From the IMG/VR virus record IMGVR_UViG_3300032249_001164, positions 15,540 through 79,539 of that record: DNA of 64,000 nucleotides; one strand, written 5' to 3'. Positions within the stretch are counted from its first letter, which is position 1. Each line of letters begins with the position of its first letter. This stretch comes from a virus. Positions 33,372 to 51,225 of this stretch are shown here, piece by piece. Below the pieces are notes generated by a model. The model was not told the DNA's origin. It did no database searches and saw only the letters and a program-made list of their open reading frames with translations. A program made the translations under genes and the position numbers.

Positions 33372-35018
33372 TCAAGCCCTCGCCAGCGTTACGCTCTCGA
33401 TCTGACCCTGGTACTTACCTGACCGATCCTCGTAGCTAGTGCCGCATGGCTCACCACTGAAGAACAGAGCCTGTACGATTCCTTCGTTGGCATAAATTCG
33501 TACATCGGCATCGCTACTATTGCTGAACTCCAGTGTTAAATGGCCATGCCACGAGTTACCTGTCCATGAAACCCTGCCTCGATGGCGCATTAAGAAAACG
33601 TGTGACGGCACCGTTAAGTCGTACACAAAGCCAGAGTACGGAATTTCTTCACAGTTTTCGGGTGAAATCCTTGACGGACTCGGATTGCGAGAGGAAAAGC
33701 GACAAACGTGGCTGGCAAATGTTTTTCCGTTAATGGTGCTTTCTTTTGCCCAGCATGTGGCGTAGTCTCCAATCTTGAGGCATATCTCCTGAAAGTCGTC
33801 AACCAACTGCTTGCTAACGCTGACATAGGTAGAGGTTTGGATATTTCCGTCAGAATGCATCATGCCCTCGCGGATCAAGGCGAGTTGATCAGCTGGAAGA
33901 TTGATATACTCCCTGGGAATGCGCTTATTGCGAGCGCCCCTGAATTGCATTAAGTAAAGGCAAGTTGCCTTGTGGTGAAATGCAAAACCGTACCCTGTCT
34001 CACTAAAGTTGACACCAAGAGATTGCAGGACTTCCTTGAAATAGGCTCGTTTGCGCTCTTTCGTGACAACAGCGAGCTTGATGACGTAGTTGCCGCCTGA
34101 TTGCACATAGGTCGAGCCATCCCCCAGCCAGCACCCCAAGAATCTGAGCCATGCATTTGTCGGATATTCGCGCTCACCAATGGTCACAGTATTGCCAATC
34201 CTGGAGCCAAGCCAGTCAACATCCCGAGACAGGTAGAGATTGTGCTTGCCAAATACTGTCTGAGCCTCAACACGCTCAAACGGGTAGGCCATTGACGCCT
34301 TGCGACGGACGCCTGCAACTCGTCCAGGTGCATAGCCCGCCTCGGCCTCAATCCGCCGCTTGGAGATCGCTGCCCACATCATGTGGCCCGGAGTTACAAC
34401 CTGCGAAACCACTTTGCTCTGAAATGAGAGCATTTTGCCATTAAAGTGATAGCGGTGGAAATCTTGCACCGGCTGGTAGACGGCTTTCGTGTTATCCAGA
34501 CACATAACCTCCTCGCCAGTGAGAACTTCTGAAATTAACTTCCATCCAGTTCTGCAGAGGACTTCGGTATCTTCAGAGAGACACGCTTCACCCGGAGTTA
34601 GATTAGCAATTACCCCGCACCTAGCGTATGTACTTTTTCCAATGAAGAGAGCTGTAATATTAGGTGGTATTCTTAGGTGTTCTAGCGCTACGCCTAACCC
34701 GTAACTATGGTGCGGCAAGACGAAAAACTTTCCCCACCTGTCTTCCTGGAGTTCTACTGGCTGCAGGTTGATTTCACTGAATGCTTTTGGGTTGACCACC
34801 GTACCAGGTACGTGCCTGAAAACCAAAAACTCTTTTGGAGATAAGCGCAAGTCATAGCCGTAGCTACTGGCGCCGTAGCTAATGGCGGGTATCACAAGCT
34901 GACTGGCACCGTCTAGCGTTTCGCCGTGCTCAATACGACGAATCAGTTTAGGCACGAAGGGCGTAATCATGCCCTTTTCTGCCAGTAGCTTAATGGCTGT
35001 GTCGTTAAGGATGGTCAC
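33372..35018 (-). CDS. dcd: dCTP deaminase containing an intein
   Basis: 'ISYGASSYGYDLRL', 'GKSTYARCG..NLTPGEA|SWHGHLTLEFSN...YANEGIVQ..F...Y..RSGKYQGQ'; about 205-aa extein. Confidence 0.93.
   Translation of the reverse strand: MTILNDTAIKLLAEKGMITPFVPKLIRRIEHGETLDGASQLVIPAISYGASSYGYDLRLSPKEFLVFRHVPGTVVNPKAFSEINLQPVELQEDRWGKFFVLPHHSYGLGVALEHLRIPPNITALFIGKSTYARCGVIANLTPGEACLSEDTEVLCRTGWKLISEVLTGEEVMCLDNTKAVYQPVQDFHRYHFNGKMLSFQSKVVSQVVTPGHMMWAAISKRRIEAEAGYAPGRVAGVRRKASMAYPFERVEAQTVFGKHNLYLSRDVDWLGSRIGNTVTIGEREYPTNAWLRFLGCWLGDGSTYVQSGGNYVIKLAVVTKERKRAYFKEVLQSLGVNFSETGYGFAFHHKATCLYLMQFRGARNKRIPREYINLPADQLALIREGMMHSDGNIQTSTYVSVSKQLVDDFQEICLKIGDYATCWAKESTINGKTFASHVCRFSSRNPSPSRISPENCEEIPYSGFVYDLTVPSHVFLMRHRGRVSWTGNSWHGHLTLEFSNSSDADVRIYANEGIVQALFFSGEPCGTSYEDRSGKYQGQIESVTLARA
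33555..34583 (-). mobile_element. Intein (343 aa) with LAGLIDADG homing endonuclease
   Basis: Block A CLSEDTEVL, block B VTPGH, LAGLIDADG-like FLGCWLGDGS and GMMHSDG, block F VYDLTV, C-terminal WTGN followed by Ser+1. Confidence 0.92.
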
Positions 35019-38997: not shown

Positions 38998-39354
38998 GAC
39001 CTGTAACCCATAAGCTGTAAGGTGTCAATCGTAACTTATGCCACGTAAAGTGCAAGGCATAAGGTGTAACTAGTAACCAGTAGCTAATAGTTTGTAAACT
39101 GTAAACTGTAAACTGTAACCTGTAAGGTGTAACCTACAACATGTAACCTGTAACCTACAACATGTAACCTACAACCTGCAACGTGTAACCTGTAAGGCGT
39201 AACGTGTAACCTGTAAGGCGTAACCTACAAGGTGCAACGTGTAACCTACAACCTACAACCTACAACCTACAACCTGCAACCTACAGCCCGTAGCGTGCAA
39301 GGTGCAAGGTGCAGGGTGTGGCGTGTGGCGTGTGGCGTGTGGCGTGTGGCGTGA
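38998..39354. repeat. Degenerate in-phase heptamer array (about 51 units, consensus AASSTRY)
   Basis: Parses without indels as aacctgt/aacctac/aaggtgt/aacgtgt/aaggtgc/ggcgtgt etc. Confidence 0.9.
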
Positions 39355-41304: not shown

Positions 41305-41517
41305 TTAATCAGCTTTTATCAACTTAACATCCTCTAAGCCGTAAGCCACTACCATGTCAGGATTCCGAAGGTAGGAACGTGTAGCCCGGAAGACATTTTC
41401 TGCACCCTTGAGAGTCTTAAAGTATTCATGGCTCCAGCGGCCCCTGGACTTTGTTGCAACACAGAAGGTTGCATCCTTCTCGACTTGCCTTCCTGATGGA
41501 AGCGTGAAACTAGCCAT
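41305..41517 (-). CDS. Early hypothetical protein
   Basis: Downstream of conserved leader hairpin A. Confidence 0.6.
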   Translation of the reverse strand: MASFTLPSGRQVEKDATFCVATKSRGRWSHEYFKTLKGAENVFRATRSYLRNPDMVVAYGLEDVKLIKAD

Positions 41518-41552: not shown

Positions 41553-41579
41553 GCAGGTTTCCGGTACTCCTACAAACTT
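41553..41579 (-). promoter_or_regulatory. Conserved leader hairpin, copy A
   Basis: AAGTTT-GTAGG-AGTACCGGAAA-CCTGC. Confidence 0.7.
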
Positions 41580-41591
41580 ACTCATCAAAGT

Positions 41592-41828
41592 TTAAGCAAT
41601 ATCCCTAAGATGCCGAAACTGATGGTTAAAGACCATTTTTTGATCCAAGTCGTAGATCGTCAACGGGCCGAATTCGGCCACGAAAGACTGAGGTGTGGAA
41701 AAAGTCTGGCGATTACAATTTCCCACTTGCTGGCATCCGAATCGAAGGTATTTCGCAAACCTTCGAGTTTTTTTCTTGTTACGTGAAATTGCAATATCGA
41801 AATTACTGACAGCAAAGTAAATTGTCAT
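41592..41828 (-). CDS. Early hypothetical protein
   Basis: First ATG after promoter cassette 1. Confidence 0.55.
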   Translation of the reverse strand: MTIYFAVSNFDIAISRNKKKTRRFAKYLRFGCQQVGNCNRQTFSTPQSFVAEFGPLTIYDLDQKMVFNHQFRHLRDIA

Positions 41829-41851
41829 AGCCTGTAATGTGTAAAGTGTGG

Positions 41852-42066
41852 AGCCGGACAAGCTGTAACTTCCCCGGCTGATCTAATAATACCCCAGCGG
41901 CGCCATTTTGTCAAGCCAGGATGCCTGCAAAGTTAGCGGACTGTAACAATAATTTCCAGGGCTACCCGTGAGGTTAAGGGCCGTTTGCCTGTAAAACCAG
42001 GCCCGCCCCATCGCTTAACCTGTAGATTTAGCGATCACAACATGTGAGGTTGCGGGATAGTGAATA
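41852..42066 (-). promoter_or_regulatory. Early promoter cassette 1
   Basis: TTGACA(41914-41909)-17-TATTAT(41891-41886); GTTA-N8-TAAC at 41932-41947. Confidence 0.85.
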
Positions 42067-42088
42067 TACAAGCTTTAGCCCTTAGCCT

Positions 42089-42508
42089 TCAACCCATGAC
42101 CCGTGGGCTGTTATCGACAGCAACAAAATCCCTTGTCGCAACTGGTACGCCAGCAGCATCGTAATCTGGATGCCGGTCTCCATCTGCGTCTACGATCCAA
42201 CAATCAACCATGTGACATCTACCGGAACAAACTGGCACCATATACCTGAAAGTCGGCTTGCTTTTGTTAAAAATCCAGCCCTGGATCTCGTACATTAAAT
42301 GTTTACTGACAAATGGTGGCAAGCCTTGCTCCAGAATCCAATCAAGGCTTTGCCCCTTCTCTAATGCAAAACTGGCGCGATAACTGTTTGAACTACTACA
42401 AAAGTCTTCAATCTTTACGCCAGACAAATCAACAAGATACGCACTGCTGATTCCAAAGTAAAGACTGTCAGTGTTGACAACTGTGAGGCTTGGGGATGTG
42501 AGATCCAT
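42089..42508 (-). CDS. Early hypothetical protein
   Basis: 139-aa ORF. Confidence 0.55.
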   Translation of the reverse strand: MDLTSPSLTVVNTDSLYFGISSAYLVDLSGVKIEDFCSSSNSYRASFALEKGQSLDWILEQGLPPFVSKHLMYEIQGWIFNKSKPTFRYMVPVCSGRCHMVDCWIVDADGDRHPDYDAAGVPVATRDFVAVDNSPRVMG

Positions 42509-42627
42509 AATACAAAAAAGCGAAAGCGATGGTAGAATTGTAAATCCTGTAGACGACTTTTACTGCTCAACCTCTTTAGCTGAACCTGCATACTCCCGGC
42601 ACAACTCAATCAACTTTCTGCCTGAGA

Positions 42628-42993
42628 TCATGCAATCTTCATTGATCGAAAAGTGATGCACTCAGGCATCATGAATATCTCGCCACCTGCGAGCTGATCC
42701 CACCGCGCTGGGTACATAGCCTCCAGCATGTCCTGCCAGCGCTCCTTCGTGACCCTGGAAGGGCCCGTGCAGTACCTTTGACGTGCAAGGTCCTGGCTTA
42801 ACCTTTGAGCCTCCTCCCAGGGGCACAGGAAGGCATCTGGCGAAACCAATCCCCGTGACTTCAGTTCGTCCAATGTCTGCTTTCCGAACATGCAGACAGG
42901 AACGTTAGGGTCGGGACCTGGAACCATGAAACTGTAAATGCCGGTGCTGTACTTTGACTTTGGATCAAAACAACATACTTCAGAGGTTGTCAT
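42628..42993 (-). CDS. DUF1419-like protein, C-terminus possibly frameshifted
   Basis: 'VTKERWQDMLEAMYPARW...FMMPECIT'. Confidence 0.45.
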   Translation of the reverse strand: MTTSEVCCFDPKSKYSTGIYSFMVPGPDPNVPVCMFGKQTLDELKSRGLVSPDAFLCPWEEAQRLSQDLARQRYCTGPSRVTKERWQDMLEAMYPARWDQLAGGEIFMMPECITFRSMKIA

Positions 42994-43187
42994 TGCGGAA
43001 ACAGAATGTGTGGGGTAATTTCAAAGGTTGCACCTGGAAACTGATCGGCATAAACGCCTGACCTACAAGTAGCATCCTCATAAGTCACCCGAGAAGCAAG
43101 AAGCTTCCAGTTACCTTCGTCATCCAAAACCGAGAGATTATACTCCTCGTAACTAACGTCTAAATCCTTCATGAATTTGGGGCACAT
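42990..43187 (-). CDS. Early hypothetical protein
   Basis: Coupled small ORF. Confidence 0.5.
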   Translation of the reverse strand: MCPKFMKDLDVSYEEYNLSVLDDEGNWKLLASRVTYEDATCRSGVYADQFPGATFEITPHILFPQ

Positions 43188-43188
43188 G

Positions 43189-43371
43189 TCAGTAAATAGC
43201 TTTTGGTTTTGGGGTCTTACTCTTCCAGTGTGGCTTGGAAGAGCTAACTATCATGTAGCAAGCTCCAATACCAGGAAGCCAACCTGTAACCAACCTTTTA
43301 CCAGCAGGAAGGCGATCTTCCAGGCTCCTGAGATCAACCTTTCCTGCTGGCTTCCAGTTTTGCTGCTTCAT
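43189..43371 (-). CDS. Early hypothetical protein
   Basis: Coupled small ORF. Confidence 0.5.
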   Translation of the reverse strand: MKQQNWKPAGKVDLRSLEDRLPAGKRLVTGWLPGIGACYMIVSSSKPHWKSKTPKPKAIY

Positions 43372-43700
43372 CGGTTTAAGCTCCCAATCGCAAATGGAAC
43401 ATTCCCTGGATTAACCCCTGCTCTAAGCGGCCTAATTCTTTCGACTAGAGCCTTGATTCTGTCAATTCGACGCCAGTAACGTTCAGCTCCGAACTTGCGG
43501 TAAAACTCTTCATGCCTGTAATCATGACGCTGTGCGCTCCAAAGCCATAAAAAACAATAATGACCGTACACCTTGTCAGATATACGGTCCCATTGCTTTA
43601 AGCTCTCCATTTGGGCTAGAGAGTGATCCAAGAAATAGGAAAGTTCAGTGGAAACTGGAAAGAGTTGTCTCCAGCGTTCAGCGATAGCCATAACAAGCAA
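43368..43700 (-). CDS. Early hypothetical protein
   Basis: Coupled ORF. Confidence 0.55.
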   Translation of the reverse strand: MLVMAIAERWRQLFPVSTELSYFLDHSLAQMESLKQWDRISDKVYGHYCFLWLWSAQRHDYRHEEFYRKFGAERYWRRIDRIKALVERIRPLRAGVNPGNVPFAIGSLNR

Positions 43701-43718
43701 GCGAGTGGATGGTTGAAG

Positions 43719-44288
43719 CTAGGCGAGTTCACCTAGTTCAGTAAACAGGTAATCATTAGCCTTGATGGTTTCGACTACCTGCTCTCGGCTGGTTTGGTAC
43801 TCGTATTCATCACGCAAAATTAGCAAATAATCTTCAAGCAGCTCCTTAGCAAAGTCGGCTTCAATCTCTTCGGCTTCGTCTTCACGCTTGAAATCTGCAA
43901 GCCAGTCTTTAGGCTTCCAGTGACTGGCAGAAGGGTCAGCCTGCTGGGTTTGAGTTCCGTACCATTCTACAAAGGCTGCAATGTATTGCTTATGGTATGC
44001 AATGGCAGTTTGGAAAGTGCGCCATTCCTTGCCGTGATTTTTTCGTATTGACTTGCAAACATCAAGCAGGTATTCGTTAAGCTTTCCCTCGATTGTTCTG
44101 CGTTCAATGTCGAACTCTACAATCTTTAGCCCAATAAGCTCGGCGTTCTCGTACGTTGAATCCCGCCAATCATAATGTACGTTGACATCATGCAAGTTGG
44201 AGATTGCTGCCTCTTGAGCTTCTTTACTAAGCTCATCGAACCTGTAAAGCGTGATTAGCTTGATGACTGGCATGGCTGTAAATAACAA
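43719..44288 (-). CDS. Conserved acidic phage/mobile-element protein
   Basis: 'LYRFDELSKEAQEAAI...EYEYQTS.EQVVETIKANDYLFTE.G' recognisable family of unknown function. Confidence 0.65.
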   Translation of the reverse strand: MLFTAMPVIKLITLYRFDELSKEAQEAAISNLHDVNVHYDWRDSTYENAELIGLKIVEFDIERRTIEGKLNEYLLDVCKSIRKNHGKEWRTFQTAIAYHKQYIAAFVEWYGTQTQQADPSASHWKPKDWLADFKREDEAEEIEADFAKELLEDYLLILRDEYEYQTSREQVVETIKANDYLFTELGELA

Positions 44289-44310
44289 GGTGTGAGGGTG
44301 CGATAAAAGC

Positions 44311-44829
44311 TCAATTATACAAACGAAAGTCTTTGAACGGGAGAATACGGCTCTTTATTTCGTCAACCTGCTTAGCTAGTCTGTCAATTTCGTTCATATC
44401 GTCTAATACGGCTTCAGGCTCGTAACCTGTCTGCAAGATGCCATCGCCCATTTCATCGCCCAGGATACCGTTACTGATGGCCGCAACATATATATAGCCC
44501 TTCATGTACGACGTTCTGCCCTGAAACTGATAGCATTTATCAATCTCAAGATTTAGCCAGTAGGAGTTTACAAGAAAGTGGAACCTAAAACCTTCATTGT
44601 AAGACCCTGAGTCTTTATCAAAAAACAAGTCACAATCCCTAAGTGCTTGATCTACAACTGCAGCACACTTTTTTGTAAGTGAGCCGCTCGCAAGCTGCAC
44701 TTTTTTGCCCTTGAACCCCTCAAGCGCAAGCTTAAGCTTGGCTCTCGCTTCGTTAAGCTTTGCGTGAACAGCGTTGCGTGTTGCAACCTCTAACCTTAGC
44801 TTGTCAAGATAGGCTTGCGAAGTTTTCAT
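44311..44829 (-). CDS. Early hypothetical protein
   Basis: 172-aa ORF. Confidence 0.6.
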   Translation of the reverse strand: MKTSQAYLDKLRLEVATRNAVHAKLNEARAKLKLALEGFKGKKVQLASGSLTKKCAAVVDQALRDCDLFFDKDSGSYNEGFRFHFLVNSYWLNLEIDKCYQFQGRTSYMKGYIYVAAISNGILGDEMGDGILQTGYEPEAVLDDMNEIDRLAKQVDEIKSRILPFKDFRLYN

Positions 44830-44868
44830 GACAGTGTGATGATGATTTTAACAAATTAGAGATAAAAC

Positions 44869-45228
44869 TCAAGTATTGATCGTGCCATCCGCACGAATGC
44901 ACATCAACATCCCTTGCATGGTGCCTGTAATGCTGCCCTCAGGAATGTAGAAAGTTTCGCCGCCAACCTTTAAAGCCTTTTGTTCGTAGTAAAAACTATC
45001 AATTACCTCTGGTAGGGTTTTACCCTTGAGACTGTCGTAGGACAGTATCCGAACTGCAATCTTTGCCCACTGAGCGTCAGTAACAAAAAATGGATTAACT
45101 CTTAAATACCAGTGACCGGGTTTCATGTCACGTCCAACGTAAGAGCTAAAGTTGCTGCATTTTACGAGTAACTCGTAGGTTGTAGGATCCTGCCGCTTAA
45201 GTGCTGTGAAATCGCTGTAAATAGCCAT
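44869..45228 (-). CDS. Early hypothetical protein
   Basis: ATG at 45228, downstream of leader hairpin B. Confidence 0.6.
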   Translation of the reverse strand: MAIYSDFTALKRQDPTTYELLVKCSNFSSYVGRDMKPGHWYLRVNPFFVTDAQWAKIAVRILSYDSLKGKTLPEVIDSFYYEQKALKVGGETFYIPEGSITGTMQGMLMCIRADGTINT

Positions 45229-45268
45229 CGCTGAAATGAGTAAAGAATGAGTAAGATTGGTTTGGAGG

Positions 45269-45295
45269 GCGGATTTCCGGCACTTCCGCAAACTT
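45269..45295 (-). promoter_or_regulatory. Conserved leader hairpin, copy B
   Basis: AAGTTT-GCGGA-AGTGCCGGAAA-TCCGC. Confidence 0.7.
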
Positions 45296-45306
45296 ACGGG
45301 ACGCAA

Positions 45307-45516
45307 TCAGGTCCAACCAGTGTTTAAGCTGTAAGATTCGTAGCCAGATCGGCTAGACACCCACTTCCAGTAGTCAAGCTCCGATGTCCGACCATCGAGT
45401 AGGCAAGCCTTATGCACTGAGCGTGCAAAAGTTGGGTGGCCATCTTCGCAACCGCCCCACGTAGCCTCAAGTTCATCAGCAGACAGAGTGCAAGACATCA
45501 CACATCCCTGTGACAA
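45307..45516 (-). CDS. Early hypothetical protein
   Basis: 'HPTF...TSELDYWKWV'. Confidence 0.5.
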   Translation of the reverse strand: MSQGCVMSCTLSADELEATWGGCEDGHPTFARSVHKACLLDGRTSELDYWKWVSSRSGYESYSLNTGWT

Positions 45517-45616
45517 ACTTCGGCTGCAATGAAACGAAGCGCAACGTAGCTATCACAGGTAGAACCCGCGATTTGCCCTTTAGTAGTCATAGCAATAAAG
45601 CGCAAAGTGTAAGGTC

Positions 45617-45643
45617 GCGAGTTTCCGGTACTCTCGTAAACTT
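45617..45643 (-). promoter_or_regulatory. Conserved leader hairpin, copy C
   Basis: AAGTTT-ACGAG-AGTACCGGAAA-CTCGC. Confidence 0.7.
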
Positions 45644-45694
45644 CAAGGTTGAATCAGAGCATTGAAAACCTCCCGCAAGATGTAAACTGTGAAG

Positions 45695-45865
45695 TTGGTT
45701 GGGGCTTGGCCTGCAAGCTCCCCGACCTGACACCATAATAACCGATTGGCTTGCGGATGTCAAGCGCAAAACCCTGTAAAGTTAGCACACCGTAACAATA
45801 AAATTGCCCCGATTTTGCCTCCAAATCTGTCTCGATTGCCTGCAAAGTTGCGGGATAGTGAACCT
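45695..45865 (-). promoter_or_regulatory. Early promoter cassette 2
   Basis: TTGACA(45763-45758)-17-TATTAT(45740-45735); GTTA-N8-TAAC at 45781-45796. Confidence 0.85.
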
Positions 45866-47028: not shown

Positions 47029-47307
47029 TTAGTGGTATGCAGTGGGAGCAAGTACAAAATAGTAGCCTTCGTGATCACTCCCCCTAGCAACGATCTTGTA
47101 GCTAGCAAGATAGCCGGCAGATTCTGGCCCCGTAAATTTATCCATCCAAATTTTGACGACTTCTATTGGATCTGTATTTGAGTCAATAGAGTCCATTGTG
47201 CAAACCTTCCAAGTCGTGCTTGCGTCACGCTTGTGTTTAGCGATTAACTTGAAACGCCCGGCTGAGCTACAAGAATTTTCGACTCGAACGCAAATGCCAA
47301 TGTCCAT
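47029..47307 (-). CDS. Early hypothetical protein
   Basis: 92-aa ORF. Confidence 0.55.
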   Translation of the reverse strand: MDIGICVRVENSCSSAGRFKLIAKHKRDASTTWKVCTMDSIDSNTDPIEVVKIWMDKFTGPESAGYLASYKIVARGSDHEGYYFVLAPTAYH

Positions 47308-47341
47308 AGCAATGAAATGTGAAATGTGAAACTGAAAGTAA

Positions 47342-47494
47342 TCAGTAATTGTCGGTTAAAATATCAAGCACATCTTGCACGTCGTCCGTAGAATTAGCTT
47401 GAATAAACTCTCTGGCGATAAGCTCCCAACTAAACCGACCCTCTTCGGCAAGTTCAACTAAGGTGGAACGTGGATCTTGTGTTTTGTGTGGCAT
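47342..47494 (-). CDS. Small acidic early protein
   Basis: First ATG after promoter cassette 3. Confidence 0.5.
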   Translation of the reverse strand: MPHKTQDPRSTLVELAEEGRFSWELIAREFIQANSTDDVQDVLDILTDNY

Positions 47495-47516: not shown

Positions 47517-47676
47517 GATGTGCCGAGGCTGTAATTTCCCCGACCCATCTACTATACCACGGCGACCCGCTTTTAGCAAGCCCAGAACCCTGTAAAGTTA
47601 GCAAAATGTAACAATAAAATTCTCGATTTTCGCAAGGTTAAGGACGCCGAGCCTGCAGATTCCAGCCGCCTCAACC
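47517..47676 (-). promoter_or_regulatory. Early promoter cassette 3
   Basis: TTGCTA(47579-47574)-17-TATAGT(47556-47551); GTTA-N8-TAAC at 47597-47612. Confidence 0.8.
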
Positions 47677-51038: not shown

Positions 51039-51225
51039 AGGCGCCGGTTTGCCTACAGGCTTCCCGACGCCTCTTATGATACCACGCCAACGCCAGGAAT
51101 GCAAGCGGGTAGTCCTACAAAGTTAGCACACTGTAACAATAAAATCGCTGGGCGCCTCGCCAACAAGACAGCCGCCCAGCGCCTTAACCTATAAAACTGG
51201 CTACAAGGTATAGCGATAGTGAACG
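51039..51225 (-). promoter_or_regulatory. Early promoter cassette 4
   Basis: TTGCAT(51104-51099)-17-TATCAT(51081-51076); GTTA-N8-TAAC at 51122-51137. Confidence 0.8.

Follow-up and report, generated by a model that had tools for sequence, protein, structure and literature searches.

A covarying hairpin with a conserved 11-nt loop in the early operons of a probable freshwater cyanophage and its relatives

What is the role of a small hairpin whose stem is rewritten from copy to copy while its loop stays the same? The question is raised by IMG/VR virus record IMGVR_UViG_3300032249_001164 (79,539 bp, with terminal repeats), of which bases 15,540-79,539 were studied (64,000 nt, hereafter the window, to which positions refer unless otherwise stated). 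Nearly all genes of the window are oriented on the minus strand. An original prediction made from the letters of this DNA had reported three minus-strand copies of an element composed of AAGTTT, a short stem and a conserved 11-nt loop in spacers between cistrons, and had proposed a structured RNA recognised by a protein, with a nut/boxB-like antitermination site, a processing site and a translational operator as examples. Judged from a comparison of 22 copies in related phages, the hairpin is a real control signal selected as a single-stranded fold, since the letters of its stem change yet pairing is kept and the loop is fixed. We infer that it is a lineage-specific cis-acting hairpin, active as RNA and bound by a protein. 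The motif is previously undescribed and of a familiar kind, that of the conserved inter-cistronic hairpins in phage early messages. To our knowledge, gene regulation after transcription start is almost unexplored in cyanophages, and cyanobacteria, as far as we know, lack Rho and make little use of initiation led by a Shine-Dalgarno (SD) sequence.

Members, structure and covariation of the hairpin family

The three copies were recovered where the original prediction had placed them, with the same stems and loops (Table 1), and their pairing was confirmed, including one G-U pair and one terminal A-C mismatch. A sixth pair is possible if the last T of AAGTTT is used. The 22-nt pattern made of flank and loop, searched with up to 3 mismatches, occurs in these three places only, each time with 0 mismatches (0.34 occurrences expected), and no fourth copy was found in the whole 79,539-bp genome.

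A covariance model was built from 10 copies and applied to relatives and to contigs fetched via neighbouring proteins. A pattern scan of IMG/VR had yielded the true relatives G001/G002, G003 and G004, which in conserved genes are 66-82% identical to this genome at the nucleotide level, and further relatives were retrieved through two conserved neighbouring proteins. The model detected 22 distinct copies, with scores of 27.7-53.3 bits, in 10 related IMG/VR and metagenome contigs, each genome carrying 1-3 copies; no further match of these searches exceeded 16.4 bits. Two weak matches, L158:1431 and L163:2492, were rejected because both are located inside coding sequence. Three relatives (G006, G007 and G011) possess the neighbouring genes without the hairpin. 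The carriers, a small group, are uncultured phages of fresh water and probably cyanophages.

The consensus consists of a 5-7 bp stem of free sequence and an 11-nt loop, A-G-U-N-C-C-N-G-A-A-A (AGUNCCNGAAA), preceded by a 5' GUUU. This GUUU and loop positions 2, 3, 5 and 8-11 (xGUxCxxGAAA) are invariant in all 22 copies. In the alignment of these copies, which was fitted to the covariance model but is ungapped, 96.2% of the stem cells hold a standard pair, compared with 21-44% in controls with the 3' partner slid 1-3 columns out of register, and both-side (compensatory) changes are present in five of six stem pairs. The middle pair is A-U in 9 copies, C-G in 8, G-C in 4 and U-A in 1. An independent MAFFT alignment of 10 copies gave comparable figures (96% of cells paired, both-side changes in four of five pairs, 22-40% in the slid controls). 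A seventh pair, U-A, is common. The hairpin is weak, with a mean of -7.4 kcal/mol over the 22 copies; an alternative conformer pairing GUUU with AAAC is weaker still on average (-4.4 kcal/mol), is preferred in 3 of 22 copies only and was rejected.

Homologous copies therefore keep the pairing of the stem as well as the loop, and none of them retains the loop with a stem that has lost its pairing. Chance occurrences of the same letters behave differently. A strict flank-plus-loop pattern had 19 matches in a collection holding one genome per prokaryotic species (185,579 genomes), and 0 of the 19 had 4 or more stem pairs. Matches of the IMG/VR pattern scan were likewise mostly chance ones, with unpaired stems and following a random distribution, and a looser scan gave, among the matches listed, only unpaired chance ones. 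Covariation in the true copies and unpaired stems in the chance matches thus carry the core of the original prediction, namely a selected single-strand structure with a sequence-specific loop in untranslated operon spacers.

The statement that the element is not a named motif also stands. Rfam covariance models run over the whole window at gathering thresholds gave no match, and at E<=10 nothing fell on the hairpins between 41300 and 45900. Among cultured phages (INPHARED), neither the region nor the 41-nt element had a match. No complementary partner for the loop was found elsewhere in the genome, and pairing of loop, flank or leader to a Nostocales 16S rRNA was limited to matches of 5-7 nt, the same as for random 12-mers. 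The 22 sequences, their clear covariation and a working covariance model make the element a ready candidate for a new family of RNAs.

Placement in early operons and exchange of the module

All 22 copies are read from the strand that is the coding strand of host-type (sigma-70) early operons, and where a promoter is recognisable, it is a sigma-70-type early cassette about 110-1,530 nt upstream of the copy. The distance from the end of the preceding stop codon to the element is 5-16 nt (9-13 nt in 18 of the 22, mostly 10-12 nt), while a start codon without SD sequence follows the stem at 23-40 nt in 21 of the 22, mostly at 23-28 nt. The core itself is not coding, as the reading frame across it varies among copies.

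In the present genome, the original prediction had put each copy 10-12 nt after a stop codon and 26-40 nt before an ATG. The distances hold: for copies 3, 2 and 1, respectively, stops end 10, 11 and 12 nt before AAGTTT and ATGs begin 26, 40 and 35 nt past the stem. The apparent gene that ends before copy 3, however, is not one. This 63-codon open frame "matches" all the promoter cassettes, here and in relatives, and is consequently a mere translation of a conserved promoter cassette. Copy 3 thus lies about 120 nt past the -35 box of early promoter P3, in the 5' untranslated region (UTR) of its transcript, and the sole plausible open reading frame (ORF) ending before it is a two-codon mini-ORF, GGAGG-N6-ATG-CTC-TGA. 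Copy 2 is found 348 nt beyond copy 3, between a 63-aa and a 119-aa ORF. Copy 1 follows the first gene downstream of early promoter P4, and the sister genomes G002 and G004 carry a copy at the same position.

The four early promoter cassettes of this phage (P1-P4) are conserved in relatives and share one order: a box TGTTAC-N5-GCTAACTTTNCAGG, a consensus or near-consensus -35, an extended -10 and a hairpin at the transcript start. Past this hairpin comes a 21-27 nt G-poor leader of xxTTACA-like heptads, then an ATG without SD sequence. The 5'-proximal hairpin of P3 is at about 45697-45727; between that of P4 and the ATG of a 78-aa basic protein lies a 23-nt leader. P1 has a strong terminator-like hairpin (-26.8 kcal/mol) directly upstream. 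Cassette hairpins consequently precede their ATGs by nearly the same distance, and with the same type of leader, as the AAGTTT hairpins do. The leaders after the AAGTTT hairpins contain no more structure than shuffled sequence.

The heptads are a feature of the early region in their own right. Most of its SD-less leaders are built of xxTTACA-like heptads in phase with the ATG (e.g., TTTCACA-TTTCACA-TTTCATT-GCTATG, about 47307-47342), and a long in-phase array of 7-nt units (GGTTACA, CCTTACA, GGTTGTA) occupies 39012-39252 on the minus strand. These shared units suggest that one factor may read both the array and the leaders. A terminator-like and cassette-start-like sequence, a 12-bp hairpin followed by ATTATTGTTTTTT, is also present inside a conserved 110-aa ORF (43562-43589, minus strand).

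Table 1. Hairpin copies, early promoter cassettes and other features discussed in the text
Feature	Position in window	Strand	Remarks
Hairpin copy 1	41553-41579	minus	AAGTTT, stem GTAGG/CCTGC, loop AGTACCGGAAA; covariance model 45.9 bits
Hairpin copy 2	45269-45295	minus	AAGTTT, stem GCGGA/TCCGC, loop AGTGCCGGAAA; covariance model 45.3 bits
Hairpin copy 3	45617-45643	minus	AAGTTT, stem ACGAG/CTCGC, loop AGTACCGGAAA; covariance model 47.7 bits
Promoter cassette P1	about 51076-51138	minus	
Promoter cassette P2	about 47551-47613	minus	
Promoter cassette P3	45735-45797	minus	operator-like box TGTTAC-N5-GCTAACTTTACAGG; TTGACA-17-TATTAT
Promoter cassette P4	41886-41948	minus	box as in P3; TTGACA-17-TATTAT
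SD-like GGAGG and two-codon mini-ORF	45654-45673	minus	GGAGG 45669-45673; ATG-CTC-TGA 45654-45662, ends 10 nt before copy 3
63-codon open frame	45654-45845	minus	not a gene; "homologues" are promoter cassettes, here and in relatives
30-codon ORF	45498-45590	minus	ATG 26 nt past copy 3; overlaps 63-aa ORF (TGATG)
63-aa ORF	45307-45498	minus	ends 11 nt before copy 2
119-aa ORF	44869-45228	minus	ATG 40 nt past copy 2; function unassigned
78-aa basic protein	41592-41828	minus	between P4 and copy 1
70-aa ORF	41305-41517	minus	ATG 35 nt past copy 1; function unassigned
dCTP deaminase-like gene	33372-35018	minus	weak LAGLIDADG match in C-terminal half
Sigma-70-family factor (L157)	genome 7998-8996, outside the window	plus	regions 1.2, 2, 3 and 4

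The close fit between the element and the preceding stop codon could mean that the hairpin acts through termination of translation: a ribosome stopping about 10 nt upstream would be handed to, or denied, the SD-less start located 60-75 nt downstream. The usual interval of 9-13 nt is about the downstream reach (footprint) of a terminating ribosome, and SD-like sequences precede only 15% of the genes of this genome. Moreover, a vestigial mini-ORF precedes each of the three copies that lie in a 5' UTR, GGAGG-ATG-CTC-TGA in this genome (G000) and in G003, and ATG-TAG in contig L314. The last of these is, however, visibly the remnant of a deleted gene: at L314:14640-14742 the 78-aa basic gene has been removed almost exactly, so that a leader, ATG-TAG and the last 18 nt of the gene remain before the hairpin. 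Mini-ORFs may consequently reflect nothing else than selection keeping ribosomes off the hairpin. A pattern scan for further cases of SD, mini-ORF and hairpin returned none besides G000 and G003, one copy has no downstream gene, and the excess of TGA among the preceding stops is explained by the genome-wide share of TGA, about 54%. We therefore regard termination coupling as improbable. A more elaborate version, slightly less probable again, would have the hairpin just clear the ribosome at the upstream stop, with a start-stop mini-ORF supplied where no gene precedes; together with a loop-binding factor, it would decide whether ribosome or message continues to the SD-less start 60-75 nt away. 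Were this version true, the element would represent, in a bacterial virus, the equivalent of viral termination-reinitiation signals. Selenocysteine insertion (SECIS), read-through and frameshift signals were ruled out by stop-codon types, frames and spacing; in a bacterial SECIS, the hairpin follows an in-frame UGA at about 11 nt and the ORF runs on through it, whereas three copies follow TAA and the frames from stop to ATG vary.

The module is also portable. It is optional before the same gene: in sister phages, the same genes are served either by a promoter with its 5' hairpin directly or by the AAGTTT hairpin module, as a comparison of G003 with G005/G006 for fam30 and of G004/L314 with G006 for fam111 illustrates. 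In six genomes, a single gene is enclosed by neighbouring copies, whose stems are often nearly the same (G002 a/b, G004 b/c, L176 a/b). The hairpin thus marks points where genes, ORFans in this phage group, are gained or lost. The genes adjacent to it differ between sister phages and are all of unassigned function.

Such a behaviour recalls the promoter-early stem-loop (PeSL) cassettes of T4-like phages, in which a sigma-70 promoter and an SD sequence are part of the repeat (PMC2839356, PMC4122927). Both are repeated intergenic modules of an ORFan-rich variable region and both mark points of gene insertion, deletion or replacement between sister phages (PMC4122927), but the hairpin module has neither a sigma-70 promoter nor an SD sequence; in this phage, the separate early promoter cassettes are the PeSL-like parts. 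The flanking pairs of copies, their near-identical stems and the differing neighbours could nevertheless be taken as signs of an element acting as DNA, either a folded site of replication, priming or recombination, a PeSL-type repeat for cassette shuffling, or a promoter for a phage sigma factor. The phage does encode a sigma-70-family factor, and counts of G-U versus A-C pairs over the 22 copies do not discriminate between the strands. Yet no consistent -10/-35 at fixed spacing was found after or within the element, no gene for a virion or single-subunit RNA polymerase was seen, and neither a duplex-DNA promoter nor a dimer-binding site would be expected to have covarying stems. The constant position of the element with respect to stop and start codons indicates a role in the transcript, and recombination between repeats would explain the spread of the module, not its conserved pairing and loop. 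A DNA-level role accordingly appears quite unlikely to us. Two specific promoters were rejected: a sigma-70- or extracytoplasmic function (ECF)-type promoter inside the module, as -10-like hexamers are missing from some copies and keep no constant distance in the others, and a hairpin promoter of the N4 type, which is read by a virion RNA polymerase and has a 3-nt loop, as a search of the large proteins revealed no RNA polymerase domain (the 2,444-aa one has only an M23 peptidase domain) and the loop here has 11 nt.

Candidate modes of action of the hairpin

A selected fold, a loop and flank read by sequence and a placement set by translation signals are most economically accounted for by an RNA element bound by a trans-acting factor. 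We favour, with moderate confidence, a protein-recognised RNA element that would act post-transcriptionally, by processing and 5' capping of the message or by control of its translation. The hairpin would be the docking site of a sequence-specific factor and would set the fate of the downstream message. The single-stranded AAG/UUU beside the stem (the slash marks the putative cut) would be cleaved by an RNase E-type enzyme, or else the bound factor would block nucleases at this site. After cleavage, the downstream cistron would begin with a 5'-terminal hairpin and a 23-28 nt G-poor SD-less leader. This layout equals that of the primary early transcripts with their own 5' hairpins, which suggests that stability and ribosome access of the downstream gene could be set independently of the gene upstream.

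Several observations argue for such a role. The distance from hairpin to ATG and the type of leader equal those of the 5' hairpins of primary transcripts. The AAG/UUU next to the stem fits the signature of cyanobacterial RNase E, a single-stranded stretch carrying A at -3 and U at +2 (PMC8682795): with the cut placed there, A is at -3 in 16 of 22 copies and U at +1 to +3 in all 22, a fit of sequence only. That one operon may hold several copies is readily understood if they serve inter-cistronic processing or the control of translation. Finally, a weak hairpin and unstructured leaders are expected of a protein-stabilised operator, and weak fixed-loop hairpins are typical of such operators (MS2, T4 gp43).

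Known systems match this scheme in part. RNase E processing near a stem-loop, yielding mRNA stabilised by a 5' hairpin, is the principle of T4 gene 32 and of 5' stabilisers of the Escherichia coli ompA type. The present element resembles an RNase E site coupled to a stem-loop in having an A/U-containing single-stranded segment directly 5' of the hairpin, between cistrons, and in the layout that predicted cleavage would produce; known sites, by contrast, need no conserved loop sequence. With the T4 gp43 and MS2/PP7 operators it shares a weak hairpin before a start codon, the loop being the specificity determinant. Those operators, however, overlap the ribosome-binding site of one autoregulated gene, whereas the hairpin here stops 23-40 nt short of the start codon and is found before genes unrelated to one another. 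A T7-type RNase III site was rejected, as it requires about two helical turns with an internal loop while the consensus fold has 5-7 pairs and no extended helix.

Some points weigh against processing or translation control. In many copies, the two U's beside the stem pair with the AA that follows, so that less of the target is single-stranded, and the pair counts mentioned above leave the strand ambiguous. The element occupies about 3 of the roughly 50 intergenic spacers of the genome and is therefore no general requirement for expression. Copy L176:4254, in a distant relative, precedes a repeat-rich non-coding region instead of a gene; in this region (L176:4290-4620, after the second hairpin) a 12-bp palindrome occurs together with TTTAGAC repeats and several CCACTAATTTTT-like ones. 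Cleavage by RNase E would by itself leave the invariant 11-nt loop unexplained, hence a reader of the loop is needed, and no candidate emerged among neighbouring genes or from gene co-occurrence. Pfam and PHROGs searches on 40 neighbouring or hairpin-adjacent proteins gave nothing informative, and comparison of hairpin-bearing with hairpin-free contigs gave no discriminating family, because most contigs are fragments.

The main rival to post-transcriptional action is a nut-like site of processive anti-termination, a possibility that we hold to be real but rather unlikely. The hairpin would then be the analogue of boxB and the 5' flank a boxA-like site for NusB/S10, and host RNA polymerase coming from the early promoters would be modified to pass downstream intrinsic terminators. 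Like the nut sites of lambda and P22, the element is a short hairpin in which the stem is free to vary and the loop is fixed, preceded by a conserved single-stranded 5' flank. Its location is similar too: copies with a recognisable promoter lie in early operons past host-type promoters, at places like those of nutL and nutR (in the 5' UTR or after the stop of the first small gene), always outside translated sequence and few per genome. The strong terminator immediately upstream of P1, the copy that precedes a structured non-coding region rather than a gene and the 78-aa protein between P4 and copy 1, with its basic N-terminal stretch, would also suit such a role.

The details fit less well. 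The loop has 11 nt in all 22 copies whereas that of nut has 5 nt and is GNRA-like, and the flank abuts the stem whereas that of nut is 8 nt away. The boxA of cyanobacterial rrn operons is GAACCTTGAAAA (bioRxiv 10.1101/2021.01.08.426015); the flank of copy 3, CAACCTTGAAGT, matches it at 9 of 12 positions, and a likeness of at least 8 of 12 is found in 7 of 19 copies against 6.8% of background windows. This likeness is nevertheless weak, uneven and in differing registers, and the genome shows no boxA enrichment. G000, G002 and G004 encode the 78-aa basic protein, but it is missing from the sequenced parts of the hairpin carriers G003, G005 and G008; the carriers were not found to share any N-like protein, nor was there a discriminating co-occurring family. 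One operon often holds two copies, 250-700 nt apart and not separated by a promoter, while the operons of P1 and P2, two of the four early operons, have no copy. Between the hairpins and the next genes, no clear intrinsic terminator that would need overriding was identified.

Such a compact selected signal in early operons transcribed by the host polymerase offers an easily mutated handle on how expression is partitioned in long early messages.

The phage and its gene content

The nearest cultured relatives of the phage, by its terminase and its sigma factor, are the cyanobacterial siphoviruses KBS-S-2A, S-H1 and S-CBS3 (33-38% identity), the sigma genes of S-CBS3 and KBS-S-2A, both siphoviruses of Synechococcus, being the nearest sigma-factor matches. 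Small shares of the words of this DNA are listed for metagenome runs from lake water and fresh water. On these grounds the phage is a probable freshwater cyanophage.

Relatives G001 and G002 are collinear with the genome across the ends of the record (genome 79308-79539 and 1-1237). The start point of the record is thus arbitrary or the genome circularly permuted, and the "direct terminal repeats" are probably signs of a circular or circularly permuted assembly and not of fixed ends.

Recognised genes include those of a large terminase, a DUF4055 portal, an HK97-type capsid and a 2,444-aa protein with an M23 peptidase domain, as well as ThyX, a DnaB helicase, Rad52 and a complete sigma-70-family factor. 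The LAGLIDADG part of the dCTP deaminase-like gene is possibly an intein or a fused homing endonuclease.

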